In this document: positions 8,272 through 56,190 of the stretch, in pieces
Numbering within the stretch: the stretch's first letter is position 1
How the letters are laid out: every line of letters starts with the position of its first letter
IMG/VR virus record: IMGVR_UViG_3300032330_001114
Span: 1 to 59,969 of that record
DNA: 59,969 nt
Strand: one strand, 5' to 3'
From: a virus
Taxonomy: Duplodnaviria; Caudoviricetes
The notes under the pieces: model-generated
Databases searched by the model: none
What the model was told of the DNA's origin: nothing
What the model saw: the letters and a program-made list of their open reading frames with translations, nothing else
Translations under genes and position numbers: made by a program

Positions 8272-8641
8272 TACACCTGAAGACCTAAGAAGAGAAAAGA
8301 AAGCCATTGAACTATTCGTGAGTATGTTCAGTGGCTCATACCAAAAGCTTGACCCACAAGATGTAGACTATAAAGTCTTTGACAAAGACAATAAGTTAAT
8401 AGCATACGCTGAGGTTGTTAGTCGCGTGAGAACAATGGTTAATGCTTACCCACTTCCAGTACCTGCAAAGAAACTTGTCAAGCTGTTTGACAAAAGAATA
8501 CCGCCTGTTATTATATGGTCTTGTGATGACGGCATCATATACGCCAAAGCAAACGAGCTCAGAGGGGAAATAATTTTCGACTCTGAGCTCATTGTTTATT
8601 ACAAGAAAAGTAAGGAGTTTAAGTATATTAGGTTTACTTAG
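8258..8641 (+). CDS. Hypothetical protein, possible degenerate PD-(D/E)XK fold
   Basis: DY...YAEV.SR pattern; last gene of + arm, stop overlaps the stop of the converging gene. Confidence 0.55.
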   Translation: MMTFDTPEDLRREKKAIELFVSMFSGSYQKLDPQDVDYKVFDKDNKLIAYAEVVSRVRTMVNAYPLPVPAKKLVKLFDKRIPPVIIWSCDDGIIYAKANELRGEIIFDSELIVYYKKSKEFKYIRFT

Positions 8642-11600
8642 TATCTTTTAAAATATGACTTGTAGTATGATTTCTTATAGGTACCATCCCTATTCTTTTT
8701 TCTTTTTTTTCGTTTAGAATAATCGTACTCTTCATCTTCAATTATCTTTTTCTCTTTTGTTAGGTCAGACTTCACTTCTTTTTCTGTATTATTTTTTTCG
8801 TAATAATCACTACCCTCTCCAAATGTCTTTTCGTATAAATCAGGGTCATACCTTTTCATGTCTGACTTGCTATCGTATCCTTGAAGCATCTCCTCTAACT
8901 TTTCCTTTTCTTCTCGTCTCGTCATCTTCTCCTCTTCCTTCTGATCCTTTCCTTTGTATGGAGCTTCTTTTGCTTCTCTTATCTTTAACTTTATTTCTTT
9001 TCTTTTGTCAGGCTCTGTTTCTTCTTCAAGCATTCTATTAAGTGCCTCTACCTCAATTTTCATTTTATCTTCTTTCTTTTTAAGAACATCAGCTCTTTTG
9101 CTTTCTACTTCACGAGTGTACGCTTCTTTACCCCCTTGCTTTGTACTACTATTTTTCTTTGCCAATCTAAGAGAGTTTCTAAGGACAGCGTTCATCTCCG
9201 CAGGGAAACCAATAAGAGAACTACCTGTCGACATCAGTGCAACATCCCCTAATGCATCAGCCGTTTTTCTTGAAACGTATTTTTCTCTTCCATACTCATC
9301 CGTATACTTTCCGGTTGTAGCAATTTCAAATGCATCAATTATTGAATTGGCTTTGTCAACAGCAATACCATATAAACCCAAAGATTTCGCTCCATTTTGT
9401 TTGAAGCTTGTCATAAGATTGAACTTATCCTCTTCATCTATATCCTCTAAGTCTTGAAAATAGCTGAGTGCCTTATCTGCGCCAATAGCTACCGGAACGT
9501 CAAGCACAGGTAATGGAGAAAGTACATCAGTAACTGTTCCTGTAGTCTGAGACTTATTCAGCATTTCCTCTCTTTTCTTTTTATCATCATCCGTCTCATT
9601 TATACCCATTGCCTGAACGGCTAAACCTCCAATATAAGAAGCAATGAGATATTGAGTATACTTAAAAGTAGCCATTTCTGCGCCATAACCTGCAAGTGAT
9701 TTAAACGCAGTTATCCTGTCTTCTTTTGTAGCATTACCTTTTTTTGAAAAAAGAGATTTCAAGTCGCTATACATTCTCATTGTCTGATTCATTCTAAAGC
9801 TTGCAAAAGGCATAACTGTTTTTACCATTACACTTTTTATTGGGTCTTTAGTATTCATGAGCTTTCCTTGCAAGTCAGCGTCTGATATGTTCTGTTGTCT
9901 ATCAACCATATCTTGAGCGTAATCTGCTGCCTCTTCATTTATCTTATCTTTTGCATAATCAAACTTTGATGGGTCTATGCCTTGTTTCTTCAATCCTTTT
10001 TCATAATAAGTAATCCAAGAGGCTTTTGCTATCCATACGTCAGGCTTTTCAACAAAGGCCTTTAGTGCTATCTCATTTGCCTTCCCCAACAATTCAATTA
10101 CTTTTGAAGCCTTTGATGTAGCGGCAGCCTCTGCTAATTTATTTATTGAGTCAACGCTAACTCTCGACTTGCCACCTCTGATAGCAATACCTCTTTGTGA
10201 GTTGTTAATAAAATTTACCTTGTCTTTGTTTCTGAAATAAAAGAAATCAGGCATCTTACCGGCATTGATAATTGTATTTATAGCAACAGGAATGGTCTGC
10301 TTAACAGGCTGAGTTACACCTGCCAAAGCTGTAGCTGCACCTGCCGTACCGAGGTTGCTAAGTTTTCTAAAAACACTTGTCAATTCATCTGTAACAACAA
10401 CTTGCCTTTGCCTTGTAGTTCTTATCAAGTCAGGTATAACTCCTTCTTTTCCGCTATTTCTAAACAACAAATCACGGTCTTCCTTATTAGGTATGATTTT
10501 CTTTATGGCTTTGGAAGAAAAGAACGACTCTATCTGTCTTACTGTTCCTGCAGTATTAATGTCCATCAAAGCGTCCTGATATGCATTAATCATATTCCTG
10601 TCAAAAGATAAATCAAAGTATCTATCCTCCATACCATCAGCCTCAGGTCTTGTTGACTTCTCAAGTACGCCTGTCTTCTTTTTGTATACACCCTTACCGA
10701 ATATGTCATTGTTGCTATTAAGAAATACAGACTCTCTTGAAGATAACTCAGGAGCTTTCTCCCCTCCTGAAAGCAAAGAGAATTTAAAGTTGGTATAGTT
10801 CAAATCTCTATCTAACTTTTTATTGTAGATGCTCTCAGATACATCAGCCAATTGGTCGTATATATCAGACCACTTATCAATCCACCAATCAACAGCCTCA
10901 ATGTTTTTATCGTCTGATTTTTTTAATACCTCATCAACTGTGTTAGAATCTTTCAATACTTTGTCGTATGATTTCTGATATACATCAGCCATTTTGCGCT
11001 CCTGCTCGGTTCCGTCTCTTAAAAGTTCTATGCTCTTTTCTACTAACTCCTTCTTTCTTTTAAACTCAGCCTTTTGTTGCTCCGGGGTCCCGGGTATATC
11101 TCTTTTCATGGCTGCGATAATACCTCTCTCAGCTACGTTATCAGCCGTGTCAAACGCCTTGCCATTTGCTTTTTGATTGTAGAACTGCTTAATGAATGAA
11201 TCAGTAAGCACATTCATCGTTCTTTGTACAGAAGCTTTTTTGTTTACCAACTCAGTAATTCCTGACAATCTCTTAAACTCTTCTGATGCTGCTACACCAC
11301 GAAACATTTGTTCTGTTAGGTTAGGTAGTGTTGATATCTGTTGACCAAAGGCTCTACCTGTCTTTTTGCTGAAGAATAGCTTTAGCTTCTTAGCTACCAC
11401 ATTATTTTCTATTGCTTTTGCTAAACTATCTTTTGCTTTGTAGTCAGCATAAACTGTCTCCATGTTTGCAACTGATCCATTGCGAATGAAATTGTTTAAC
11501 GCATCAATAACACCAAGCTTCTCTTTGTCGCTTAAATCCCTCATGTCCATAGACATAAACCTCTCGGCAATCTTCTTTCTGTTTTCAGACAAATCAATGT

Positions 11601-14600
11601 CCTCTCCGGTTAATGGGTCTTTGCCTGTGCGAAGCATTTCATCAACCATGGCAGCGCTTGAGTCAAATATCTTGTTTACTCTTTCAGTTATCTTCTTGAG
11701 AAGACTATCATCAACTTTAGTATTGCCTTCAACCTGACCCGTCTTAATTAATTCAAGAACCTCGTCATCACTTAAAAACGTAGCGTCATCGCCCATTATT
11801 CCTCTTGCTGATTTTATTAACTTGTCCTTATCAATTTTATACTGCGCCTCAAGCATCTTATCAACATATTCGCCCATCTTAGCGATGTCAATCATGTCCG
11901 CTATTTTTATGGGATTATTCTTATCCTTTGTAATCTTAGAACCCTCTAGTGACTCTCTTAGCTTTTTAGCCATTTCATTATACTCGTCAATATTTTCAAC
12001 ATCAGATGGACGTATTTTCAAGAATTGTTTTGCAAATACAGATAATTCTGCGTTCTTCTTTTTGTTACTTGCAAGTGCTTTTATTGCTGCTCTTACGCCA
12101 TTAGCGTCATTTAGTTTGTTATCATACTCTGCATCCTCAAATAACTTCTCAGCATACTCGATAACTTTTTCAACTGCTGCATCATCCTCTAAGTTAACCT
12201 TGCTTATCTTGTTTAATAAGGCGTCTACTTTTTTTGTGCTAATGGCTCCTGACTTTTCTATTTGCTTTATGGCTGCCGCAAATACCTTTCTTCTCTCCAT
12301 CAAATCCTTAGCCGTCTTTAATCCTTCTTTAACGCCTCTGCCAAATGCTTTTATCTGCTCTTTCAATGCAGCCTTTTCAGTCATGGTAACCACTTTAGGC
12401 GGTTCAATACCAAGTATTGTCTCTGCGCTTGGAGCTTTCTTTACTCTCTCTCCAAACTTCCTAACTACTTCTTTTACCATTGCATCTTGCTGAACTTGAC
12501 TAGCGGTCTTATATTCATTCGACTCTGTCAATATCTTTAATGCCTCTTTCTTTTTTGCCTCAACTTCAGCCTTATATTCTTCAGCAGCAGCCTTAGCCTT
12601 ATCAAGCGTTTTCTTGGCCTCTTCTATCTTAGTGGCATTACCATTCTTCTTTGCAACTTTAAGCTTGTCCTTAGCCTTGTTTAAATCCCTATCAACATAC
12701 TCCTTGTACTTAGGTATGAGCAGTTCAATATCATCCATTATAGATGTCTTTGTTTCATTACCTTCAGCCATGGTAACATTAGTAGGTTTGCCTTCAGATA
12801 CGGTAGCGCTTCCTGTTTTTATCGTAGTACCTAACGCTTCATTAACTGAGGATACAAGTTGCTTTTGTTGTTCTGTTCTTTCTTGTTCAGGAACTTTTAA
12901 TGCTTCATTGTATGCTTCAGCAGGAGTGCTTACTGTTCCTTCTTTTAGATCAAATATTGCACTACCTTCAGTGAAGCTATCGGGAGACGCCTCATCTGCT
13001 GTTTCTTTTGCATCTCTAACATCAACTCCCTCATATCCCATTTTCTTTAATATGCGAGTTTCTAATCTATCTGTTTTATAATCATCTTTAGATGTCTCTT
13101 TTGAGTATTCTTTTAATTCAGAAGAAAAATCTGTATTTTTTATTTTATTTAAAAATTCAGGCATCCAATATTCTAACATTTGAGAATATCCATATCCTCT
13201 TGAATTGTTTTCTATTGATTCTTCAACAGTTAATTTGTTTTTAACTAAGTCGGTAGCTAATCTTTTTAGTGCATTTTTTACTACCCAATATTGAGGTGTT
13301 GTCAATTTGAGTAAATTGTATTTTGAAAAATCAACTATTTTAAATCCTTTTTCTGTAGATTTTCTTGATTCTTTTCCTACAACTTTGTTGGGATCTGATA
13401 CAAAATAATATCCTGTAAATGGCATATCTCCATTGTAAGATTCTGTAGCATAATCTGATTTATCTTGTAAATTTCCAACATGATATCCTGCATCTTCAAA
13501 AACTTTAGATGCAGCATTAGCGATTAATTTAGGATTTTTTTCTGCAATATTATTAAGTTCTTTCTCAACATCAACTCCTCCTGTCTTAGTCTCCGTTCCT
13601 TCAGCCATAGTAACATCGCCACGCTTTGCCTCACTATTTCTTTTTAGTAATTCATTTACTGCCTGTTCTTGCGTTCTGCCAAGAACATCTCCATAAAAAG
13701 ACTTTGCAGTGTATGGCTTTGCTTCTGCTTTATTGAAATCAGCATTAACAAAGTTTCCAAATTCCTTATCAATGACCATTCTACCTATTGGTTTGCCATC
13801 TAAAGTAACTGTTAGATTGCCCCTACCATCATCCTCAATTTTTGTATTTTCAAACTCATACCTCCATGATCCTGTCTTAGTTTCCGTTCCTTCGGCACTG
13901 GTAACATCGGCACGAGTTTTTGGTTCCCTGCTCATTGGAACAGCTTCAGATTCATTTTCTAAAGCATAGTCAATAAGTTCTTGTTCTGTTTTAAATGCAC
14001 CACCAAAAGCATCTTCGAAATCAACCTTAAATCCGTTCTTTTTATAGAAATCAATAAGTTGCTTTTTGCTTAATCCATCACGGCCAAATGGCTTTGCATC
14101 AAGAGTGAGTTTTACACCAAGCGCATCAGCAGCATCTGTTATATCTTTCATAACAGCCTTGCCGGTGCCTTTGCCTTTATCAAGAGATAATATTGATTCA
14201 ATAGATATTTCATTCCTATCTCTCTTGTCAAACCTATTAAATTCTAAAGAAGCCTTATTTCCATAAACAAATGACTTGTTATCAATAGGATTTTTTTGAA
14301 GCGGATTTAAACTGTTAAGTTTATTAAGAAACCTATTTAGTATATTATCTTTTACAAATTGAACTTTTTGAGGTTCTTCTTTTTGAGGTTCTTGCTTTTC
14401 ATTTTTATTAGGCTCAGGAATTTTGAAGAAATTATTTTCAATATTCTTATCAGGATTTTTGCTTCTTTTTACTAACTCATCAATAGCTTCTTGCTTAGAC
14501 TCTCCAAGTACATCTCCATAAATCCATTCAACAGAATAAGGTTTAACTCCTGCTCTACTAAAGTTTGCATTTTGCCAAGTTTTTTGACTTGGATCGTAAT

Positions 14601-17169
14601 ACATTTTACCTATCTCTTTACCATTAAGAGTTACTGTATGCTCGTTATCTTCATTCTTTTTGGTTTTAACTATATCTGTTCCACTTGTCATTGTCTCCGT
14701 TCCTTCGCCACCGGTAGTAACCTCAGTAGGACCACCACTTGTAGTAGCGGTAGCACCGCCTGCACCAATGGTAATTGTTGTGCCTTTAGCAGAAGCAGGA
14801 GTAGCTGTAACCTCAGGAGTAGACTCACTAACTGTAGCACTACTACCTGCTTGAATAGTTGTGCCTTCAGGCCTAGACTCAGCAGCTTTATGCGCCTCAA
14901 GCATTTTCTTGAAGTAGTCTAACGAAGCGACGTCATCCTCTGTTGGATTAGCTTCCTCTTCATAAAACTTAATCTTCTCCTCGTAATACTTTATAGGGTC
15001 AGCAAAGTAATCCTTAGCCTCTTGTACATCAGTCTCATCATGATTATCGGGGTTATCTAAGATTTCTTGGAACGCGTCTTTCTCATCAGCGATGGCTTGA
15101 CTTTGTTCGGGAGTGATTTCAAGTTTGGCGTTTCCTTCGCCCACTTCTTGCAATCCCAATTCGGGTTGTTGGCCGAGTAGCACGCTTTCATTTGTTGTTT
15201 GCTTTTGAACGGCATCTTCTTTCTGTTTATTGGTTACTAATTCAGTTAACTCATTATTTAATTCTGCAAGTTTTGCTCTTTTCGCATCAATAAATGCTTT
15301 TATAGACGCTCTCTCTGAAGGTAATTTTGAATTTGTGAACTTATCTGACAAGTCACTCAGTTCAGCATCCAAATTCATTATCTCTGTATTCAGTTCTCTT
15401 TTTCTTGTGCCAAACGTAGAGTTATCATAAGCATCAGCAATAGCCGATATCTTATCAATTATCATCTTCTTCTCATTTGCTCCAAAGCTCTTATTGTTAT
15501 TCATTAAATTAATAAGCGCGTCTCTATGCTCAACAATGTCATTGATTGTATTGTGAGCATCTATTTTATTTTGCAACTTAACAGCCTCATCTCCAAGCGT
15601 CTTCTTTTTTTGCATGTCAGGCTCCCTCAGTATTGCTTTTTTTATAGCATCTCTTGCGGTCATCATGGCTTGTATATCGTCCTGAGTAAGATTTGGGTCG
15701 TAAGATATATCAAGGTTCGCCTTAGTCTCATTTATGACTCTTCCAAGAGAGTTAATTGGATTGTCACTGAGTACGCTCTCATAGTAGTGGTTAGCTTCAT
15801 TTTGGTTCTTATATATTGAACCTGCATGCAACAAACTAAAACCAACGCCAGTACCTGCCTCCATAATCATTTCTTCAGGCGTTAATGCTCTCCTTTCTGT
15901 AGCAGCAACTCTTAATGCCTTAGCTGACGTAAATACACCTGCATTTGCAAGTGGATTTGATATAGCCGTAGCTATAGCGCTATTAAGACCTGTCTTTGAT
16001 ATTAATTTAGCTATAGCAGGAGAGACCTCCCCTGCAGTTACACCAAGCACATGCATATACGCACCTTCAGCCGCTCCTTCTAATGCACCATATAGTGAGT
16101 TAACATATGGGTCTTCTCCTTCTTTAGTCTCAGCCATGCCTTTTATAGCACCTTTCGTTGCCATTATCTTAGTGAATGGAGAAGTGACTGATTCTTTTAC
16201 AAGCTTTGTAGTTTTAGGTAAGTATTTTTCTACTACCTTAGCAGCTTGAGGAGAATATTTTTCAATAACGGGAACTGCTTTTTTAGTTGTTGTTTCAGCC
16301 CATTTAGCCGCTGCTGATTCAGCATATGCAGGATTGTCCATAGCTGCAGCCAATACCAAATCAGGAGCCATCCCTGCTATATTCTTAGTTATCTCATAAG
16401 GTATCTTCATTACTCCTTCAGGAGCTACTTTTTGCTGATACTCCTCTATGTCTTTTAATTGGTCTTTTATATTTGAAGAGGCATTGGCAAGCGCTGTTAT
16501 AGATTTTGTTTTTTGCTCTTGAGGTAAGACTGAATTGATTATCAAGCTTGATACATTACCAATTCCTTGCAATATCGCTCTTGGGTCAATAGGAGACATA
16601 TCTCCTCCCTTTTTCTTACTTAATTGCTCTAATTGGTTTTTTACAGCATCACTCGCAGGCTTATCTGTATCAGGAATATCTCCTCCAAAAAAATTGCTTT
16701 CATTTAATTGATTTTTAAATGCATTCAATACGTCATCAACAGGCTTTAAGAAACCTTCAGACCATATATTTGAGGCTATACCTGATACTGCATCTGCAAC
16801 TTTCTTTGTACCAAGCATTGTATATGCCTGTGCTTTAAGTGCAGCATTGCCAATCTTAGATAGGATACCATCATCCTCAGTCTCTTGCGATGATGACCCC
16901 GATGAAGCATCTGCCGAAGACGAACCCGAAACGACTGAATTTTTTTTTTCAACGGAAGGTTCAGTAGCCTTTATTTTGTTCAAAAAAGAGTCTATAGGAA
17001 TATCTTTTGTAAACGAAGGGTCAATAGAACCTACCCATCCATGCATTTCCTTTGCATAAGAAGGGTCCTGCATTTTCTGAATGAATGTAGCGTATGGAAC
17101 ATCGGTTCCGTATGTTGAATCATTTTGCACAATCCAACCATATAGGTCTTTTAAATACTTCTCGTTCAT
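8638..17169 (-). CDS. Giant internal virion (ejection) protein, polyvalent type with GNAT and ADP-ribosyltransferase-like domains
   Basis: 2843 aa, last late gene; GNAT motif KGKGTGKAVM..LIDFYKKNGF; ART-like YH..G.YF..GYEGV..SAIF; helical C-terminal half. Confidence 0.8.
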   Translation of the reverse strand: MNEKYLKDLYGWIVQNDSTYGTDVPYATFIQKMQDPSYAKEMHGWVGSIDPSFTKDIPIDSFLNKIKATEPSVEKKNSVVSGSSSADASSGSSSQETEDDGILSKIGNAALKAQAYTMLGTKKVADAVSGIASNIWSEGFLKPVDDVLNAFKNQLNESNFFGGDIPDTDKPASDAVKNQLEQLSKKKGGDMSPIDPRAILQGIGNVSSLIINSVLPQEQKTKSITALANASSNIKDQLKDIEEYQQKVAPEGVMKIPYEITKNIAGMAPDLVLAAAMDNPAYAESAAAKWAETTTKKAVPVIEKYSPQAAKVVEKYLPKTTKLVKESVTSPFTKIMATKGAIKGMAETKEGEDPYVNSLYGALEGAAEGAYMHVLGVTAGEVSPAIAKLISKTGLNSAIATAISNPLANAGVFTSAKALRVAATERRALTPEEMIMEAGTGVGFSLLHAGSIYKNQNEANHYYESVLSDNPINSLGRVINETKANLDISYDPNLTQDDIQAMMTARDAIKKAILREPDMQKKKTLGDEAVKLQNKIDAHNTINDIVEHRDALINLMNNNKSFGANEKKMIIDKISAIADAYDNSTFGTRKRELNTEIMNLDAELSDLSDKFTNSKLPSERASIKAFIDAKRAKLAELNNELTELVTNKQKEDAVQKQTTNESVLLGQQPELGLQEVGEGNAKLEITPEQSQAIADEKDAFQEILDNPDNHDETDVQEAKDYFADPIKYYEEKIKFYEEEANPTEDDVASLDYFKKMLEAHKAAESRPEGTTIQAGSSATVSESTPEVTATPASAKGTTITIGAGGATATTSGGPTEVTTGGEGTETMTSGTDIVKTKKNEDNEHTVTLNGKEIGKMYYDPSQKTWQNANFSRAGVKPYSVEWIYGDVLGESKQEAIDELVKRSKNPDKNIENNFFKIPEPNKNEKQEPQKEEPQKVQFVKDNILNRFLNKLNSLNPLQKNPIDNKSFVYGNKASLEFNRFDKRDRNEISIESILSLDKGKGTGKAVMKDITDAADALGVKLTLDAKPFGRDGLSKKQLIDFYKKNGFKVDFEDAFGGAFKTEQELIDYALENESEAVPMSREPKTRADVTSAEGTETKTGSWRYEFENTKIEDDGRGNLTVTLDGKPIGRMVIDKEFGNFVNADFNKAEAKPYTAKSFYGDVLGRTQEQAVNELLKRNSEAKRGDVTMAEGTETKTGGVDVEKELNNIAEKNPKLIANAASKVFEDAGYHVGNLQDKSDYATESYNGDMPFTGYYFVSDPNKVVGKESRKSTEKGFKIVDFSKYNLLKLTTPQYWVVKNALKRLATDLVKNKLTVEESIENNSRGYGYSQMLEYWMPEFLNKIKNTDFSSELKEYSKETSKDDYKTDRLETRILKKMGYEGVDVRDAKETADEASPDSFTEGSAIFDLKEGTVSTPAEAYNEALKVPEQERTEQQKQLVSSVNEALGTTIKTGSATVSEGKPTNVTMAEGNETKTSIMDDIELLIPKYKEYVDRDLNKAKDKLKVAKKNGNATKIEEAKKTLDKAKAAAEEYKAEVEAKKKEALKILTESNEYKTASQVQQDAMVKEVVRKFGERVKKAPSAETILGIEPPKVVTMTEKAALKEQIKAFGRGVKEGLKTAKDLMERRKVFAAAIKQIEKSGAISTKKVDALLNKISKVNLEDDAAVEKVIEYAEKLFEDAEYDNKLNDANGVRAAIKALASNKKKNAELSVFAKQFLKIRPSDVENIDEYNEMAKKLRESLEGSKITKDKNNPIKIADMIDIAKMGEYVDKMLEAQYKIDKDKLIKSARGIMGDDATFLSDDEVLELIKTGQVEGNTKVDDSLLKKITERVNKIFDSSAAMVDEMLRTGKDPLTGEDIDLSENRKKIAERFMSMDMRDLSDKEKLGVIDALNNFIRNGSVANMETVYADYKAKDSLAKAIENNVVAKKLKLFFSKKTGRAFGQQISTLPNLTEQMFRGVAASEEFKRLSGITELVNKKASVQRTMNVLTDSFIKQFYNQKANGKAFDTADNVAERGIIAAMKRDIPGTPEQQKAEFKRKKELVEKSIELLRDGTEQERKMADVYQKSYDKVLKDSNTVDEVLKKSDDKNIEAVDWWIDKWSDIYDQLADVSESIYNKKLDRDLNYTNFKFSLLSGGEKAPELSSRESVFLNSNNDIFGKGVYKKKTGVLEKSTRPEADGMEDRYFDLSFDRNMINAYQDALMDINTAGTVRQIESFFSSKAIKKIIPNKEDRDLLFRNSGKEGVIPDLIRTTRQRQVVVTDELTSVFRKLSNLGTAGAATALAGVTQPVKQTIPVAINTIINAGKMPDFFYFRNKDKVNFINNSQRGIAIRGGKSRVSVDSINKLAEAAATSKASKVIELLGKANEIALKAFVEKPDVWIAKASWITYYEKGLKKQGIDPSKFDYAKDKINEEAADYAQDMVDRQQNISDADLQGKLMNTKDPIKSVMVKTVMPFASFRMNQTMRMYSDLKSLFSKKGNATKEDRITAFKSLAGYGAEMATFKYTQYLIASYIGGLAVQAMGINETDDDKKKREEMLNKSQTTGTVTDVLSPLPVLDVPVAIGADKALSYFQDLEDIDEEDKFNLMTSFKQNGAKSLGLYGIAVDKANSIIDAFEIATTGKYTDEYGREKYVSRKTADALGDVALMSTGSSLIGFPAEMNAVLRNSLRLAKKNSSTKQGGKEAYTREVESKRADVLKKKEDKMKIEVEALNRMLEEETEPDKRKEIKLKIREAKEAPYKGKDQKEEEKMTRREEKEKLEEMLQGYDSKSDMKRYDPDLYEKTFGEGSDYYEKNNTEKEVKSDLTKEKKIIEDEEYDYSKRKKRKKNRDGTYKKSYYKSYFKRY
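12742..14725 (-). repeat. Four linker repeats VTxAEGxETKT separating domains in the giant protein
   Basis: Copies at ~14680-14725, 13868-13912, 13577-13620, 12742-12783. Confidence 0.8.
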
Positions 17170-19984: not shown

Positions 19985-20395
19985 TTATAAATATTTAATA
20001 AGTTCCTCTGTATATGACGCACTCTTTATATAACCAAGTTTCTCGTATGTTTCAACTAGACCTTTATTGTCCATTAAAGAGTATGCATATTTGTATCCTA
20101 AATTTCTTGCAATATTTGTAAGTGTCATTATAAGCAATGATACTGACTCTTTTCTTTCAGGCTTTTTTCTGTAAGTTTTGCTTGATATAATCCAATCAAC
20201 CCAAGCTATTTTAGAATTTGTGCTATACAAAAAACCTGCACAAATCGGTTCATCTTCATCCACAATCATACACCCCCCAATTCCATTGTCAGGTAAGAAG
20301 TCTTTAGATGGAGGAGTAAACCCCCAATCCTTCCACCAACCTACAAGAATGTCATCGTAATCTGAGCTATTTAGTATTCTTACATCTAAAGCCAT
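19985..20395 (-). CDS. GNAT-fold acetyltransferase-like protein
   Basis: ICAGFLY..AWVDWIIS..ARNLGYKY..LVETYEKLGY; typical podovirus position between tail and ejection genes. Confidence 0.7.
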   Translation of the reverse strand: MALDVRILNSSDYDDILVGWWKDWGFTPPSKDFLPDNGIGGCMIVDEDEPICAGFLYSTNSKIAWVDWIISSKTYRKKPERKESVSLLIMTLTNIARNLGYKYAYSLMDNKGLVETYEKLGYIKSASYTEELIKYL

Positions 20396-20418: not shown

Positions 20419-21243
20419 TTAAGGAAAACTTTTCATGACCTCTGAGCCAACTCCAAACAATTCAATCTTGCTTGACGAGCCATTGGTTATGTCAAACACG
20501 CAGTAGTGACCTAATACTCCATGAGATTCAGCAACTGAGTTTTTAACTGTGAAAAAGTAGTCGTCATCGTCCGGTATGGAAACAGTTCCCGGAGGAGTTG
20601 TATCTATAACTAATTGGTTTATTCCTGCAGGATAATTTTGAATTATATTTGACACCACGCCTGCAAAGAATGTTGTTGTATAAGCAGGAGGTATAGCAAA
20701 ATAAACGCTATCTCCAATACTAACAACTCCTCCTATTGATATTAGCGGCACAATAGAGAAGTTTACCTCTGTATAACCTGCTTGTATATCTCTACTTATA
20801 CTTCTGCCTATTCCCGTAACCGCTCTTGTAGACAATTCTCCTGAAGCATCATTTCTAATAAACGCAAAGAATGTCTGCTCTTTCTTTTCAAACCACGTTG
20901 ATGTAATAAATCCTGAGTTCTGAAGGTCAGTTACCAATGTAGCATCCCACTTAGAGTCTCCTTGCAGCACAATGGTTTTAAAAAGCTTGTTCTCAAGAAC
21001 TCCTTCGTTGATAACGCCAACTAACCTTGTCGGAACAAATGGACCGGGGGGAGGCGGAACTAAAAATTTGTCATACCACTGCTGATAGAAAGTATTTCTG
21101 CTTTCATTCACATTGTGTTTATAAAGGTCTCCGCCTTTAAATGTGTACAGGTAGTTGTTCATCCCTATTATCCAATCAGGATAAAAAGAGTAGAATGACG
21201 GCCAACCTTTTGCGCCTTCACTATATGTTAATGTATATGACAT
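20419..21243 (-). CDS. Tail protein, probable C-terminal half of a split tail stabilisation/nozzle protein
   Basis: TLTYSE..KGWPSFYSF.PD..IGMNN.LYTFKGG.LYKHN...KLFKTI pattern. Confidence 0.6.
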   Translation of the reverse strand: MSYTLTYSEGAKGWPSFYSFYPDWIIGMNNYLYTFKGGDLYKHNVNESRNTFYQQWYDKFLVPPPPGPFVPTRLVGVINEGVLENKLFKTIVLQGDSKWDATLVTDLQNSGFITSTWFEKKEQTFFAFIRNDASGELSTRAVTGIGRSISRDIQAGYTEVNFSIVPLISIGGVVSIGDSVYFAIPPAYTTTFFAGVVSNIIQNYPAGINQLVIDTTPPGTVSIPDDDDYFFTVKNSVAESHGVLGHYCVFDITNGSSSKIELFGVGSEVMKSFP

Positions 21244-31748: not shown

Positions 31749-34184
31749 TTAACGAGGCTCAAACTCGCCCATATCAAATCCATCTAAGCTATCTTCATTC
31801 GACTCAAAGTTTAATGGAGGAAGATTATTTTTCCTTTGATCTATTAACTTTGATTGCTGAGTATTCTGTATGCTTATTCTCTTATTCTTTTCGTCCTCTT
31901 TCATTTTATCTCTCTGAGATATTTTACCTATCTCCATGTCATGCAATTGAAGATTATAATTAAATTCCTCTGCCATCAACTGAGACTTAAACTGCATTTC
32001 TTGTTGAAGCTTCTGTATCTCATATTGAACCTCTGCTTGTTTAATTTTTATCTTCGAATTGGTCTCTGCTTCTATTTTCATCATAGCTGTTTGAGCCGCC
32101 ATTTGCTGAGATTGCATTTGTTGCTGAGCAACCATGGATTGCTTTTGCATTTCCATCTTGTCAGCATTATCTTGCTTCTTAACTCTTTTCATCTTCAAAA
32201 GCTGATTGGCGAGTTTAAGATTTTTAATCTCCCTTATGTCAATAGCATCCTCAAGATTAATGTCTCCCTTTGATAATGCCATTTGGATATTTGCTTCAAG
32301 CTGTGCTTTTTGTTCTTCATCGGGAGATACCTCAATGAATATACCAAAATCGTAAATGTATAAATCCGATATGTCATTTAGTATAGATACATTGTATTTG
32401 CCAATTTTATTTACAAAGTCATCTTTAAAATCAGCATACTCAAGAATATCTGCAACTCTATATGTCAAAGCTTCTGCCATAGTTCTATATACAAATAAAC
32501 TTCCATCAAGAATATGTCTTGTTGCTGTATTTGAATTAAGTGCAGCCAATTTCTGTAGACCAACTAATGAATCAGGGTCAGGCATTGAGCCATCCCTAGC
32601 TTCATTTAATCCGGTTACAGACCTAATCATATCCATGTAATGATTATAGTTGGCTATAAGCATTTGAGTTTTACTTGCGCCTGAATTAGACGTCAACTGC
32701 GTAATAGGAACTCTTGCATTATTAAACTCTCCATCTTGAGTATAACTACGCCCAATAACACTACCTGTTTGGAAGTATAATCTAAGTGCATCTTCAGGAT
32801 TATAAGCATTGCCTGTTCCTAAGTCAACCTCATTCAATCCATCTGCATCTATAAATACACCATCAGGGACAACACGAGCAATTACTTGCTGAAGTTTTAA
32901 ATGGGTAATTTGAATTAAATCAGCAAATGGTATCATTCTTCTTACTAATGACTCAATAACCCCTTTATACATACGTGGAGCACAAGCAACGTAATTTGGA
33001 ATTGCATGTTGAGATGCAGATTTTGGACGAACCATATTTTGGGACAATTCCCATTTAAGCAATATGTTTGTTCCCATTACCATAATCCCCTCATACCACA
33101 CATCAATAGTCTTCTCCATTTTCTCAAAGTTGCCCTCCTCCATCATTTCAACAGGAGGATTGAACGTATCGTCTTTCTCAATTACACGAGAACCGCCATT
33201 TTCAAGTATCTTTTTTTTGTAAACAAACTTCTTTGTTGATTTATAATTAAAGTACATCAATGTACAAGTGTCACGATGAAACAGACTATTCTGATAGAAC
33301 TGAGCAACATTGTAGTAATCATACCAACTTTGACTGTACTGAGTTATCTCTTGCAAATCTTCTTTAGTCAATGATTGGTCAATCTTCATCAACTCAGTTA
33401 GCGGCATTGTTTTAATCTCTCCCCAATAGAAACAATCCCTAAAATATGGGTCTTCTGTATAACTATAAACCACATTTGCAGGGTCCACATAAGAAACCTT
33501 TACTCCTGAGCCGGGAAGGAACTCGTGTTTAACAATAGCTATGCCTATAACAGTCATGTCATAGTCAAGGCGCTTGCGTATATCTTGGTAGTGGTTTTCG
33601 TCAAATATTGTATTGATAGCTTCTTCTTCAGCAATCTCTATTGCAGGTTTATAATTAAGCTGCATATACAGGCTTAACTCTTCATCAGTATTTGGTAACT
33701 CTTCAGGATCCATTGTAAAGCCATTAAAACCTGTCTTTTCTTTTACAAGAGTTAATATGTCTTTTGATACCATCTGAGTTTCAATCATGTCCTGATACTT
33801 GCTTCTCTTTGCCTGAGACATAGCATCTTGAGCATACGCCTTTACTTTAAACAATCTATCAGACATTCCATTAACAACGATATCAACAAACTTAGGGATT
33901 ATGGGAACAGGAGTCCAGTCTAAATTGAGATAAGATAAATCTCCGTCAATAGCTAATTCATTTTTGTATTTAGCAATAGACTGCTCCCCTCTTGCATATA
34001 ATCTAACCTTATGGAAGTCTCTCCATTGTGCATAATACCTACATGAATTACTGTCTTTTCTAAACCATTCATATTGGATTGCTTGTCCTACTTGAAGTCC
34101 AAATTCTTGTGATGCCTTTTCAGCATCAGAAGCTAATTGACTTGGAAATGTTGTAGATTTTATGTCTATTACTATATTTTTCAT
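31749..34184 (-). CDS. Portal protein
   Basis: 811 aa after terminase; WTPVPIIPKFVDIVVNG, TGLNEARDG, Q-rich C-terminal coiled coil. Confidence 0.9.
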   Translation of the reverse strand: MKNIVIDIKSTTFPSQLASDAEKASQEFGLQVGQAIQYEWFRKDSNSCRYYAQWRDFHKVRLYARGEQSIAKYKNELAIDGDLSYLNLDWTPVPIIPKFVDIVVNGMSDRLFKVKAYAQDAMSQAKRSKYQDMIETQMVSKDILTLVKEKTGFNGFTMDPEELPNTDEELSLYMQLNYKPAIEIAEEEAINTIFDENHYQDIRKRLDYDMTVIGIAIVKHEFLPGSGVKVSYVDPANVVYSYTEDPYFRDCFYWGEIKTMPLTELMKIDQSLTKEDLQEITQYSQSWYDYYNVAQFYQNSLFHRDTCTLMYFNYKSTKKFVYKKKILENGGSRVIEKDDTFNPPVEMMEEGNFEKMEKTIDVWYEGIMVMGTNILLKWELSQNMVRPKSASQHAIPNYVACAPRMYKGVIESLVRRMIPFADLIQITHLKLQQVIARVVPDGVFIDADGLNEVDLGTGNAYNPEDALRLYFQTGSVIGRSYTQDGEFNNARVPITQLTSNSGASKTQMLIANYNHYMDMIRSVTGLNEARDGSMPDPDSLVGLQKLAALNSNTATRHILDGSLFVYRTMAEALTYRVADILEYADFKDDFVNKIGKYNVSILNDISDLYIYDFGIFIEVSPDEEQKAQLEANIQMALSKGDINLEDAIDIREIKNLKLANQLLKMKRVKKQDNADKMEMQKQSMVAQQQMQSQQMAAQTAMMKIEAETNSKIKIKQAEVQYEIQKLQQEMQFKSQLMAEEFNYNLQLHDMEIGKISQRDKMKEDEKNKRISIQNTQQSKLIDQRKNNLPPLNFESNEDSLDGFDMGEFEPR

Positions 34185-36427
34185 CTAATCAATTGACTTA
34201 TGTTTCCATCATTGCTATACCTTGCGAAGTTAATACTAATTTTTGACTCTTTTTTTTCAGGCATATACATATGTTTTTGATTTGCCATGATGGCCAATCC
34301 TGAACTTATACACGCATCAAATCGAGTTCTATCGTTAATATCAAACTTTGCCCAATCTTCTAATGTTCTTGTGAATGGCATTGTGCCCATTTCATCTTGA
34401 GGTCTATACATTCCCGTAAAGTCCATTCCTACAAACTTTTCTATGTACGACTCTATTGCTGCAGCATGAACTTGCTTGACATCTTCAGAAGAGTTTGGTA
34501 TCCCTCCAAGCTCTCTCTCTGTAGCATTGAGTTTATTGTACTGCTTGTCAGGCCTATTCAAACAGAATCCTCTGTATCCTCTATTCTTAAAGTGATACAA
34601 AAGCCTTGGTTTGTTGTTCTCTATAAGTATTGGCATCCCAAAGAATACACAAGCCATAAGCACCTCCTCAAAGAATATCTCAGCCGTTTGAGGACGTGCT
34701 ATATACTCTAAAAAGAATTGATTGGTTGGTGCGTCATCCATATGGAACTTAGTCATACCATGCAACGCTCCATTTGATCCTCTTCCTCCTACAACTGCAG
34801 ATATATCATAAGAGTCACACCCAAAAGACCCAATATGCTCATTGCCCGGATACTTAATGCCATTTCTATCGTGCACATTATTCTGAAGATGCTTGGCAGG
34901 AGTCCAACTAACTAAAAATCTTCCTCTGTTATCAGGAGACCAAATAACTTGCGTATCCTTTATTCCATCCTTCCAATAAAATGTTCCACGAGTCAAGTAG
35001 TGTGCTTGAATCATAGAATCATTATAGTCAATCTGTTGGTAAATCTTTGTAAGATTAAAAAGAGATTGCTTGCTCTCATCCCTAAACGCATGAGACTCTG
35101 TTCTTGGGAACTGACGATAAAATTCATTGAGCGCGTCTGCATCATTTTTCAAAGAATCAACCTCTGCCTCCCAATAATCTATCGCTCCGTTTCTAATCCA
35201 ACCGCCATCAACGCCCTTAATGTCTACAGCAGGCTTCTTGAATACAGGCATTCCGTACAAGTCTATAAATCCCTCCATATTCCACTCCATGGGGATAAAC
35301 AAAGCGTATAACCCACTCTTTGTCTGCCCATTTGCATTACGACTTGCAACTCGAGAGTCTTCATATATGTCTTTGAAGTTCTGACCGCCCTTATTCAATG
35401 CATTTGATGTAGAACCCATCATACATTTGCCAATTATCTTACTACCTAAACGCAAACATGTCTTAGTAACACGCCAATTCTCCTTTATATTCTGAGGCTT
35501 GGTCCACTTTCCACTCTCGTCATGAGCCAAAAATAGCAGTTTCTCTCCATCATATGAGTTATCCTCTGTATTTTTCCAATCTATTGTTGTATCCAATCCT
35601 TTTATATCCTCAGTTTCTATGTCATACATGTTTTTCTTGGTAATCTTAGCTGCAGGAACCCTAAATGCCAACTCGGTTTTAGGCTTATCCATACCATCCA
35701 TGATTGGCTTGAAGAAGAATGGCAGTCTGCTATTGATTGGAACGACCTTATCTGTAAACATTTTCTTTGCATCGGAACCTGTTTTAGACAACATACCAAC
35801 ACGAGCATCACTTGCAAGCGTTCCTATGTTAATACACTCTGAAGACGCCATAAATGAGAAGCCTGAACGCCTTATCTTAAGGTATATCATTCCAAAAGAC
35901 CTTGTATCTGCCTTACACGCCTCCCAAAACAACCAATATATCCTATTGGCCTCTCTAAAATCAGGATAGCCAACATCTATACTTGCCCACTGAAGATAAA
36001 TCCAATGAGACCCGGTTATATAAGTAGGCTTGCCATTATTCATGAACCAAAAACCTTCTTCTCTATAATCAAATTGCTTCTCGATATAATCTACCCAATG
36101 GTCTTTAAATTGAGCAGGCTTTTCGTTCCAATGAAATATTGATTGAATCTTAGCAAGTTCTTTCGGGTAATCTTCTCTTTGCCAATATTGCTCAGATTTC
36201 TTGTCGCTTCTTTTCTTACAATCCTTAGGCGCAAGTGGAAGTGCTACATTTAATCCTGAAATGTTATATACTTCTCCTATTTGCCCTGTCTTTGATATAA
36301 CAACCATGTCATACTTTGGGTCATATCCATACTCCCATTTACTCGACTTGTTCTTTGTTGAAAGAACAGACGATGGTATGAAGTTATCCAATACCCTGTA
36401 TAAATTATTTTGACCTTCTTTCTGCAA
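34181..36427 (-). CDS. terL: Terminase large subunit
   Basis: KIRRSGFS Walker A, HDESGK Walker B, MGST, RQFPRT..AF, nuclease GCDSYD and ILIENNK motifs. Confidence 0.9.
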   Translation of the reverse strand: MQKEGQNNLYRVLDNFIPSSVLSTKNKSSKWEYGYDPKYDMVVISKTGQIGEVYNISGLNVALPLAPKDCKKRSDKKSEQYWQREDYPKELAKIQSIFHWNEKPAQFKDHWVDYIEKQFDYREEGFWFMNNGKPTYITGSHWIYLQWASIDVGYPDFREANRIYWLFWEACKADTRSFGMIYLKIRRSGFSFMASSECINIGTLASDARVGMLSKTGSDAKKMFTDKVVPINSRLPFFFKPIMDGMDKPKTELAFRVPAAKITKKNMYDIETEDIKGLDTTIDWKNTEDNSYDGEKLLFLAHDESGKWTKPQNIKENWRVTKTCLRLGSKIIGKCMMGSTSNALNKGGQNFKDIYEDSRVASRNANGQTKSGLYALFIPMEWNMEGFIDLYGMPVFKKPAVDIKGVDGGWIRNGAIDYWEAEVDSLKNDADALNEFYRQFPRTESHAFRDESKQSLFNLTKIYQQIDYNDSMIQAHYLTRGTFYWKDGIKDTQVIWSPDNRGRFLVSWTPAKHLQNNVHDRNGIKYPGNEHIGSFGCDSYDISAVVGGRGSNGALHGMTKFHMDDAPTNQFFLEYIARPQTAEIFFEEVLMACVFFGMPILIENNKPRLLYHFKNRGYRGFCLNRPDKQYNKLNATERELGGIPNSSEDVKQVHAAAIESYIEKFVGMDFTGMYRPQDEMGTMPFTRTLEDWAKFDINDRTRFDACISSGLAIMANQKHMYMPEKKESKISINFARYSNDGNISQLIR

Positions 36428-55209: not shown

Positions 55210-56190
55210 ATGACAGAAAAATTAAAAGAGGTACTTAGTATCCAATCGGTCAGCCATGACCAATTCAGAATGTTTGCGTACATAGTACGCCAAGTCAAGC
55301 AGATACCCAACACCGTCATGTTCATTGACGATGGCAATCTGTATATCACAAAGGGTGACGCACCAACGTATCCGTGTATGGTAGCACACATGGATACGGT
55401 GCATGACATTACTGATGACTTGTTCCCATTGGAGTTCAATGGTATGATTACAGGCTTCGATCGAATTAACATGGAGCAGGTCGGTATCGGTGGCGATGAC
55501 AAGGTCGGTATCTTCATTGCACTTGAATGTCTCAGGGAGTTTGATGATATGAAGGTCGCGTTCTTCAGAGACGAGGAGGTAGGGTGCATGGGTAGTTATG
55601 GTGCACAGATGTCGTTCTTCGATGACTGCAGGTTTGTGCTTCAGTGCGATAGGCGTGGCAATAGTGACTTCATCATTGATGCGAGTGGAGTCGAGCTGAG
55701 TAGCAAATGCTTTCAGGATGACGTGCTCCCAATCATATCAAGCTATGGCTACAAGTTTGCCAATGGCATGATGACCGATGTCATGGCACTGAAAGAAAAT
55801 CAGATAGAGGTAAGCGTAGCTAACATATCGTGCGGCTATTACAATCCTCATTCGCCTCAAGAGTTCGTTGACATATTTGATGTGATGTCTTGCTTAGATA
55901 TGTGCAAAACTATCATCCGCTATTGTACCGACACGTACACGCACCGATACAAACCACGCTATGTTGCACCGGTTGCTCCGTATTCTAAATACGGCAAGCA
56001 CGCAAAAACAAACAAGTTTTGGGATTGGGGGGCACCCAAACAAACAAGTATATTTTGGGAAGAAGAAGAAATTAAAAAGACGCCCGTGGTAGATACGTAC
56101 TGCAAAGATTGTTGGAGAGAACAAGCGGTTACTGTAGACGGCTTATGTATGCAGTGTGAAAGTTGGTATTCAGATAACATGTTATGGTAA
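55210..56190 (+). CDS. M28/M20-family zinc peptidase
   Basis: VAHMDTV, GGDDKVG, DEEVG..GS, QCDRRG, YYNPH; C-terminal CxxC..CxxC. Confidence 0.85.
   Translation: MTEKLKEVLSIQSVSHDQFRMFAYIVRQVKQIPNTVMFIDDGNLYITKGDAPTYPCMVAHMDTVHDITDDLFPLEFNGMITGFDRINMEQVGIGGDDKVGIFIALECLREFDDMKVAFFRDEEVGCMGSYGAQMSFFDDCRFVLQCDRRGNSDFIIDASGVELSSKCFQDDVLPIISSYGYKFANGMMTDVMALKENQIEVSVANISCGYYNPHSPQEFVDIFDVMSCLDMCKTIIRYCTDTYTHRYKPRYVAPVAPYSKYGKHAKTNKFWDWGAPKQTSIFWEEEEIKKTPVVDTYCKDCWREQAVTVDGLCMQCESWYSDNMLW

Follow-up and report, generated by a model that had tools for sequence, protein, structure and literature searches.

A repeated in-frame linker bounds variable cassettes in a giant protein of a Flavobacteriia-type podovirus

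Introduction

According to Iyer, Burroughs, Anand, de Souza & Aravind (2017; PMC5512222), phages and conjugative elements encode polyvalent proteins, in which one very large polypeptide combines several effector-type domains in mosaic arrangements, is linked to virion genes and is postulated to be delivered with the DNA; GNAT and ART-type domains are among the neighbours described there. In this study, we analysed a giant gene of the IMG/VR virus record IMGVR_UViG_3300032330_001114, the whole of which (59,969 bp, completeness rating 99%) is here called the window. The gene is a single open frame (P0001; 8638-17169, minus strand) encoding 2,843 amino acids (aa), and its product resembles the polyvalent proteins in its size, its effector-type domains, its linkage to virion genes and its mosaic domain combinations. 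The difference is that one conserved, repeated in-frame linker delimits the cassettes of the present protein and that exchange points map to this linker, whereas the word 'linker' is absent from that paper's main text, in which peptidase domains are proposed as the means of processing (PMC5512222). In addition, the zincin-like HExxH motif is absent here, and the two GNAT families of that paper are described from other phyla. In the literature covered, subscription papers and supplements lying outside that coverage, no phage protein was described as having a repeated in-frame linker that serves as a cassette joint.

Short peptides also mark joints in polymorphic toxins, in which VENN of CdiA and PxxxxDPxGL of Rhs lie at the junction of the variable C-terminal toxin tip and immunity genes adjoin. 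A short conserved peptide that bounds a variable domain and serves as an in-frame recombination joint is the point of likeness; the difference is that the joint of the present protein recurs up to four times internally and that several internal cassettes vary. Alt and the internal proteins of phage T4 are packaged and injected, and the prohead protease cuts them at a cleavage motif. They are host-modifying enzymes that travel in the virion and enter the host together with the DNA, as the gene context would suggest for the present protein, but each is a small protein of its own with a targeting peptide at the N terminus, and no prohead protease family was found in the present genome. T4 Alt is described, and polymorphic-toxin cassettes are mentioned, in the paper on polyvalent proteins (PMC5512222). 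The Vibrio MARTX toxins have conserved N- and C-terminal regions around central modular effectors, and their composition varies between strains by gene exchange (PMC4453568; PMC5218395; PMC5555677). The present protein shares this layout; however, it is a phage protein and not a secreted bacterial toxin, and the likeness is one of analogy, not homology. No RTX repeats were found in it with Pfam, and because the whole 2,843-aa protein contains 0 cysteines (and 10 histidines), it has no MARTX-type cysteine protease domain. AcrVA5 (PDB 6IUF), an N-acetyltransferase that acetylates Cas12a and Cas2, is a stand-alone 96-residue chain from Moraxella prophages (PMC11021501), whereas the related GNAT domain predicted here from the sequence and a structural model measures ~155 aa, is preceded by a domain X and lies inside a 2,843-aa protein.

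Results

The central variable array of the giant protein (aa 761-1476), which lies between a conserved N-module and a conserved C-module, contains four copies of a linker, and the reading frame is the same in all of them. The cores start at aa 817 (VTTGGEGTETMT), 1089 (VTSAEGTETKT), 1186 (VTMAEGTETKT) and 1465 (VTMAEGNETKT) and follow the consensus (D/E/N)VT(TGG/MA/SA)EG(T/N/R)ET(K/M)T(S/G). The first-pass annotation of the window had reported these four copies and a clear similarity of their DNA, and the comparison bears this out, because the copies form one 45-nt DNA repeat family (12742-12786, 13579-13623, 13870-13914 and 14683-14727) that is 62-87% identical to the reference copy, at positions no more than 3 nt from those of that annotation. 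A degenerate core pattern, derived from the same four copies on which it was tested, matched four times in the window, each time in the giant gene, and had no match in any of 100 dinucleotide shuffles. The bracketing of the array by GTTI..GSATVSE, also reported earlier, was recovered as the motifs GTTIQAGSSATVSE (aa 769-782) and GTTIKTGSATVSE (aa 1447-1459), which flank the array on its two sides.

The two outer linkers are long forms that open with GTTI..G..ATVSE, and the two inner linkers consist of the short core with R(A/G)D ahead of it. All of them are on the minus strand. Extended linker 1 (aa 761-830; 14680..14889; GC content 0.50) contains two GTTI..G..AT units followed by the core VTTGGEGTETMTSG. 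Linker 2 (aa 1087-1101, RADVTSAEGTETKTG; 13867..13911), linker 3 (aa 1184-1198, RGDVTMAEGTETKTG; 13576..13620) and extended linker 4 (aa 1438-1476, ending in …GTTIKTGSATVSEGKPTNVTMAEGNETKTS; 12742..12858) were delimited by the repeat and the core match. The linkers are rich in Thr, Gly and Glu in the protein and GC-rich in the DNA (0.40-0.51).

The linker is confined to part of the family. A whole-protein search returned 58 giant relatives, the query included, and the strict linker motif was present in 17 of the 58 and a relaxed motif in 19. When the central regions of 18 proteins were cut at the linker and the pieces were clustered, at least 15 cassette families were obtained, with one to four cassettes per protein and a variable order. 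For example, the ART-like cassette precedes X+GNAT in P0012 and follows it in the window. Among the families are a second GNAT-like cassette, a coiled-coil cassette present in six proteins and numerous singletons, and a further array architecture was found at locus L137. Pfam assigned no cassette of P0019, P0029 or P0004. An alignment of the cassette C family (A1) to P0019 and P0029 by hhalign was rejected; it had matched just the backbone-like extension of one alignment member and not their cassettes.

In DNA comparisons (blastn) of the window with loci L005, L006 and L007, the N-terminal block of similarity ends at aa 779 and the C-terminal block resumes at aa 1452 or 1460; the block of L006 runs through cassette A and ends at aa 1100. 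Over 81 nt of linker 1, the identity to L005 and L007 is 95%, compared with 83-86% for the backbone. Across all pairs of 15 proteins, 369 of the 675 ends (55%) of high-scoring segment pairs (HSPs) in the central regions fell in linker intervals, which were counted whole as linker, compared with a mean of 160.7 (24%) and a maximum of 189 for random positions in 200 draws; the protein pairs are related and non-independent through shared ancestry, and the comparison is therefore not a probability.

In these sequence comparisons, cassette identity is decoupled from backbone identity. The X+GNAT cassette is 87% identical in P0014 and 76% identical in P0016, on backbones of 48% and 45% identity, respectively, and the X' cassette of P0015 is 86% identical on a backbone of 52%. 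The opposite is observed in P0004 and P0005, in which X' is 71-74% identical on backbones of 91-92%. The ART-like cassette of P0018 is 85.7% identical over 237 aa, and its backbone is listed at 41% by the whole-protein search.

Contigs of four public runs (X1-X4) were compared with positions 12000-15600 of the window at 90% likeness. The form of the window is present whole in an 18,483-nt contig of X1, which is possibly the source sample. In X4, from another study, position 12714 is joined to 13889 with 46 other letters between them, so that cassettes B and C are skipped and the architecture is cassette A, one linker and then the C-module. In X2, also from another study, position 13602, inside linker 3, is joined to 14867, at the upstream edge of linker 1, and cassettes A and B are skipped; cassette C has 7 differences in 438 positions and 4 in 332, the neighbouring backbone matches only in short pieces at 87-89%, and homology stops at 12862, by linker 4. 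X3 follows the window through cassette A and departs at 13870, the first base of the linker-2 repeat, beyond which the reverse complement encodes GVEMSERDIQ, the start of the coiled-coil cassette as in P0002. From these positions in X2, X3 and X4, all four linkers appear to be break or join points. A further join in X3, of 13139 to 14959, has a depth of 3.6, which is low, and is left uninterpreted; missing cover in X2-X4 and the low share of words in X5-X9 say nothing about absence or habitat.

The first-pass annotation had proposed a swappable array with its boundaries at the linkers. This proposal is upheld by the variable content, number and order of the cassettes, by the ends of the DNA blocks and HSPs, by the decoupled identities and by the contig joins; neither a fixed domain content of the orthologs nor boundaries unrelated to the linkers, either of which would speak against such an array, was found.

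The same annotation had described the segments between the linkers as X + GNAT, X' and an ART-like domain, and the first two descriptions stand. In the AlphaFold (AF2) model of cassette A (aa 831-1086; mean predicted local distance difference test score [pLDDT] 85.8), domain X (aa 831-905; 14455..14679, minus strand), a small beta-rich domain followed by a helix, is joined by a disordered, low-complexity spacer (aa 906-930; 14380..14454, minus strand; pLDDT 44-51) to a GNAT domain (aa 931-1086; 13912..14379, minus strand). Foldseek returned 31 PDB matches for this cassette at E<=0.001, and those listed were almost all GNATs (GCN5, PCAF, Naa50 and AcrVA5), with AcrVA5 (6iuf_A) at TMt 0.78 and a root-mean-square deviation (rmsd) of 2.5. 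The profile of 18 homologues (A2) matched 6iuf_A in the PDB at E 1.9e-9 over 69 positions, the GxG loop included. The pyrophosphate loop of GNATs is Q/R-x-x-G-x-G/A after strand 4. This acetyl-CoA-binding loop is present here, with DKGKGTGKAVM aligned to TKRQGIGSQLI of 6iuf_A and G171 nearly invariant in A2. The domain does not reach the Pfam gathering threshold (Acetyltransf_7, 13.5 bits vs a cut-off of 27), and stand-alone GNAT homologues score 14-19 bits in Pfam. We conclude that cassette A contains a real GNAT domain whose closest solved relative is AcrVA5, and that it is probably an anti-defence acetyltransferase of the AcrVA5 type. X is also paired with GNAT in the small proteins P0065, P0070 and P0071. 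In runs X3 and X4, 64-73 nt of the spacer between the two domains (14384-14458) are replaced by 13-22 other letters, and the spacer of P0003 is also shorter.

Cassette B (aa 1102-1183; 13621..13866, minus strand) consists of X', a stand-alone paralogue of X that is 42-45% identical over 62-64 aa to the X domains of P0003, P0012, P0013 and P0016. A phmmer search of X' against the PDB gave chance-level matches only, and neither X nor X' matched anything in PADLOC.

Cassette C (aa 1199-1437; 12859..13575, minus strand) is modelled by AF2 as an alpha/beta domain (pLDDT 88.9), and its identification as an ADP-ribosyltransferase (ART) was not confirmed. Its family (A1) has the motifs GYHxG, FTGYYF, DFSxYNL, YEGIDV and GSxIFDL, in which T54, G55 and F58 (FTGYYF) are invariant and D209 (IFDL) is nearly so, all of them on predicted strands. 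The active-site triad of polyvalent ARTs is described as a histidine on strand 1, a tyrosine on strand 2 and an acidic residue, and the motif pattern of cassette C resembles this H-Y-D configuration (PMC5512222). However, the hidden Markov model (HMM) of ART-PolyVal (PF18760) had no match anywhere in the window, even at E<=10; hmmscan of the giant protein and 18 members of the cassette C family gave no PF18760 match, nor any Pfam match for cassette C. A profile search of the PDB found nothing, and Foldseek found 0 PDB matches for the model at E<=0.001. The best BFVD match, 'PolyVal ADP-Ribosyltransferase', has an E value of 6.2e-4 and a probability of 0.98, yet TM values of 0.33/0.20 and an rmsd of 15. 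Because this low-TM match is the sole support, we retain the cassette as 'ART-like, unassigned'.

GNAT and ART-like domains are also found by themselves in small proteins and, at differing positions, within giants of up to 5,653 aa; a 734-aa query returned 309 proteins at E<=0.001. The cassettes are more AT-rich than the rest of the gene, as had been noted, with GC contents of 0.32 for X, 0.329 for GNAT, 0.362 for X' and 0.301 for cassette C (0.30-0.36 overall) vs 0.37-0.39 for the backbone (N-module, 0.386; C-module, 0.373; whole window, 0.37). A polyvalent protein has at least two effector-type domains in one large phage polypeptide, and the present one has GNAT, X/X' and a third conserved domain.

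The N-module (aa 1-760; 14890..17169, minus strand) was delimited by ortholog comparison. The C-module (aa 1477-2843; 8641..12741, minus strand) is assignable to no family by alignment and profile searches; its last 143 residues (aa 2701-2843) are rich in Lys (21.7%) and Glu (18.2%). The giant protein had no usable family match in PHROGs, PADLOC, NCBIfam or Pfam, all four Pfam matches being below the cut-off, and the profile of a 30-protein alignment matched nothing in the PDB. With the whole protein, the C-module or a conserved piece of 401 aa as the query, tblastn found nothing in the isolated-phage collection; the protein family is therefore known from metagenomes only.

The giant open reading frame (ORF) closes a minus-strand run of genes that match PHROGs 'virion structural protein' and share their block and strand with the terminase (34181-36427) and a P22-like portal (31749-34184), both assigned by PHROGs matches; the linkage to virion genes expected of a polyvalent protein is thus present. 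The portal is most similar to those of the uncultured podovirus MW202828.1 (78.7%) and the Flavobacterium elemo phages (47%), followed by those of Maribacter, Cellulophaga and Tenacibaculum phages, and on the basis of this similarity we regard the phage as a Flavobacteriia-type podovirus. From this gene context, we infer that the giant protein would be packaged in the virion and enter the cell with the DNA, and that its cassettes would act on host proteins there. The positional counterpart in Cellulophaga phage phi40:1 (gp101) is annotated as structural 'based on experimental MS/MS proteomics', and BLAST found no similarity between it and the giant protein of the window. The syntenic giant of MW202828.1 (3,859 aa) has only aa 644-751 in common with the window protein, and that of elemoD (3,757 aa, annotated 'structural protein') only aa 648-691 within this stretch.

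The stretch at aa 644-751 (14917-15240, minus strand), around AVQKQTT…PELGLQEVGEGN, adjoins the cassette array on its N side and is the only part shared with these syntenic giants. The AVQKQTT motif is also seen in the distant giant proteins P0037, P0041 and P0053, and the stretch may be a universal packaging or docking signal.

Two scans extended the search for the linker. Back-translated EGTETKT had 76 matches in 75 stretches of viral contigs, of which five, on four contigs, are true linkers and another, located where a contig ends, is ambiguous; the remainder is about equal to a rough chance estimate, and L137 is the only new linker-bearing locus. A metagenome scan added only L163 and L165. 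A conserved stretch ending in …HSKLATPFQEGTETKT and then a stop, read in one frame, occurs in many unrelated IMG/VR contigs (L087, L088, L090, L092, L093 and ~25 more); this stretch is apparently a recurring element, possibly an RNA gene, whose match to the pattern arose by chance and which has no connection with the linker finding.

Two other candidate features were tried and dropped. A translation start internal to the gene, after the last linker, was discarded with the conserved Met ~24 nt from any purine-rich stretch. The D-S/T-x motif of Bacteroidetes O-glycosylation is not found in the linker, and O-glycosylation sites there were likewise discarded.

Discussion

The giant protein is a polyvalent protein with conserved ends and a central cassette array, and we consider it likely that its linkers act as in-frame exchange joints and that the cassettes would be injected as cargo. 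According to this proposal, the linker DNA of close relatives would provide short shared in-frame homology, and recombination at the linkers between co-infecting phages would swap, remove or add whole cassettes while leaving the frame and the domains intact. More distant transfers of cassettes would go through other joints. In the protein, the linker would most likely be a flexible spacer, so that each cassette could fold and act independently. In other clades, the same cassettes sit between different Thr/Glu/Pro-rich linkers with unchanged domain boundaries, which makes the TETKT linker the homogenised variant, particular to this clade, of a more general beads-on-a-string layout.

Several observations weigh against this proposal or restrict it, besides the shared ancestry of the protein pairs compared above. 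P0018 and many other giants hold the same cassettes between unrelated linkers, so that the linker is not required for their mobility, and ~30% of the HSP ends lie >20 aa away from any linker. The public runs were compared as contigs and not as reads, and joints at <95% likeness can stem from other organisms or repeats. The linker DNA comes from five genes, all of close relatives, with 12 copies in 7 distinct versions, among which 4 of 10 codons differ only synonymously and the others are fixed; selection on the DNA is therefore inseparable from selection on the peptide. The core GDVTMAEGTETKTG is identical in P0029, which is listed at 43% identity, and is thus better kept than the backbone; such conservation is beyond the needs of a plain spacer and therefore suggests an added role at the protein level. 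The N-module, the C-module, X and the ART-like cassette are all without a family match in the searches made. Packaging and injection are suggested by gene position only; phi40:1 gp101 has nothing in common with the window protein, and elemoD gp72 and the MW202828.1 protein share no more than aa 644-751 with it, so that their virion status is not transferable by homology.

A protein-level role would be explained if the linkers were primarily proteolytic sites, cut by a phage, host or intrinsic protease at the acidic x-x-E in the capsid or after entry so as to release the single effectors, which is compatible with a role in recombination and which we regard as conceivable but doubtful. T4 and phiKZ prohead proteases cut after Glu, and each full linker contains several x-x-E positions. 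Preservation of the peptide core through the synonymous changes and its identity in P0029 point in the same direction, and zincin-like or assemblin-like peptidases have been proposed to process polyvalent proteins (PMC5512222). However, the models of Peptidase_S77, S78, ClpP and S49 (PF03420, PF04586, PF00574 and PF01343) gave 0 of 4 matches in this 99%-complete record, and Pfam matched none of the ORFs that lie between the portal gene and the capsid gene. The giant protein itself, besides having no cysteine and few histidines, is without HExxH, and no invariant or nearly invariant His or Cys column is found in the 30-protein alignment. The only peptidase-like gene seen, an M42/M28-type metallo-aminopeptidase (55210-56190, plus strand), is in the early region and has no known link to the giant protein. 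None of these tests supports cleavage of the linker; it may yet be carried out by a host protease or an unrecognised one. A bolder version of these ideas, which we think unlikely, would make the giant protein the phage counterpart of a MARTX toxin and a dedicated delivery platform, with a linker that is both a recombination joint and a specific recognition or cleavage site of a protease. The N- and C-modules would then serve for packaging and for passage through the tail and envelope, the linker DNA would let the phage population trade anti-defence cargo, and a protease would free each cargo in the cell; if this were true, the virion would deliver any protein set between two linkers.

Receptor-binding proteins are often highly variable and often contain Thr/Gly-rich linkers, and the giant gene is the last one after the tail and muzzle genes, a frequent location of fibre genes; the protein might accordingly be an external tail or fibre component whose variable centre determines host range. 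We consider this very unlikely, because cassette A has an acetyl-CoA loop aligned to that of AcrVA5 and its cofactor is cytoplasmic, because the searches of Pfam and PHROGs with the giant protein found no fibre, lectin or depolymerase family, and because both families of cassettes are found in small stand-alone proteins as well as inside numerous unrelated giants, as polyvalent domains are (PMC5512222). It is highly improbable that the linker is a remnant of the internal duplication that produced X and X' and that the orthologs differ by lineage-specific deletions, with no exchange. X and X' are indeed homologous, each is followed by the short linker form, and deletion between direct repeats would yield some of the shorter architectures; against this, the slots hold at least 15 mutually unrelated cassette families in variable order, in several pairs the cassette and backbone identities go in opposite directions, and cassette C is 98-99% identical on a backbone of <90% in another study's sample. 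We give equally little credence to an assembly artefact, in which assemblers crossed over at the repeated linkers. The relatives are all metagenomic, the linker is repeated and common to co-occurring strains, and joints at <95 likeness call for caution. However, the copies in the window are only 62-87% alike over 45 nt and, by eye, seem to share no 31-mer; one architecture recurs in several clusters (P0007, P0010 and P0011, and, by matching linker positions, P0008 and P0009); P0003 was found on two separate contigs (L006 and L165); and in X1, which may however be the source sample, a contig of 18,483 nt contains the window's form in full.

The polyvalent proteins form a known class, in which changes of the domain sets have mostly been inferred from lists of architectures. 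Exchange at the linkers would give a concrete rule of diversification in one clade, in which the linker marks the slots, variants differ slot by slot, and near-identical cassettes are found on diverged backbones. The AcrVA5-type acetyltransferase and about a dozen unknown slot domains become candidates for pre-made, injected anti-defence factors, and the remaining occupants of the slots could be given priority as candidate counter-defence proteins of Flavobacteriia phages. In addition, the array offers defined insertion points for asking whether virions deliver chosen proteins.

Beyond the central array, turnover between genera affects the whole slot of the giant gene, because the gene at the same position is also giant in MW202828.1 (741-12320; L085) and NC_055855.1 (30639-41912; L086) and is almost wholly different in sequence. 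Two genes of the tail block may be added. A 274-aa protein (20419-21243, minus strand) carries the C-terminal domain of the crAss muzzle protein (PF25729, E 8.6e-11), which ties the tail of the present Flavobacteriia podophage to crAss-like tails. A 136-aa ORF (19985-20395, minus strand) has a weak GNAT match (PF00583, E 0.009) and matches phrog_17252 (E 1e-38); the corresponding gene of MW202828.1 bears the annotation of an acetyltransferase subunit, and with this ORF the structural module would have a second acetyltransferase. At the other end of the window, a plus-strand gene (231-992) encodes a PDDEXK-like DUF3799 protein (E 4.5e-17). PDDEXK-like nucleases are often partnered by a single-strand annealing protein, and such a pair would suit short-homology recombination.

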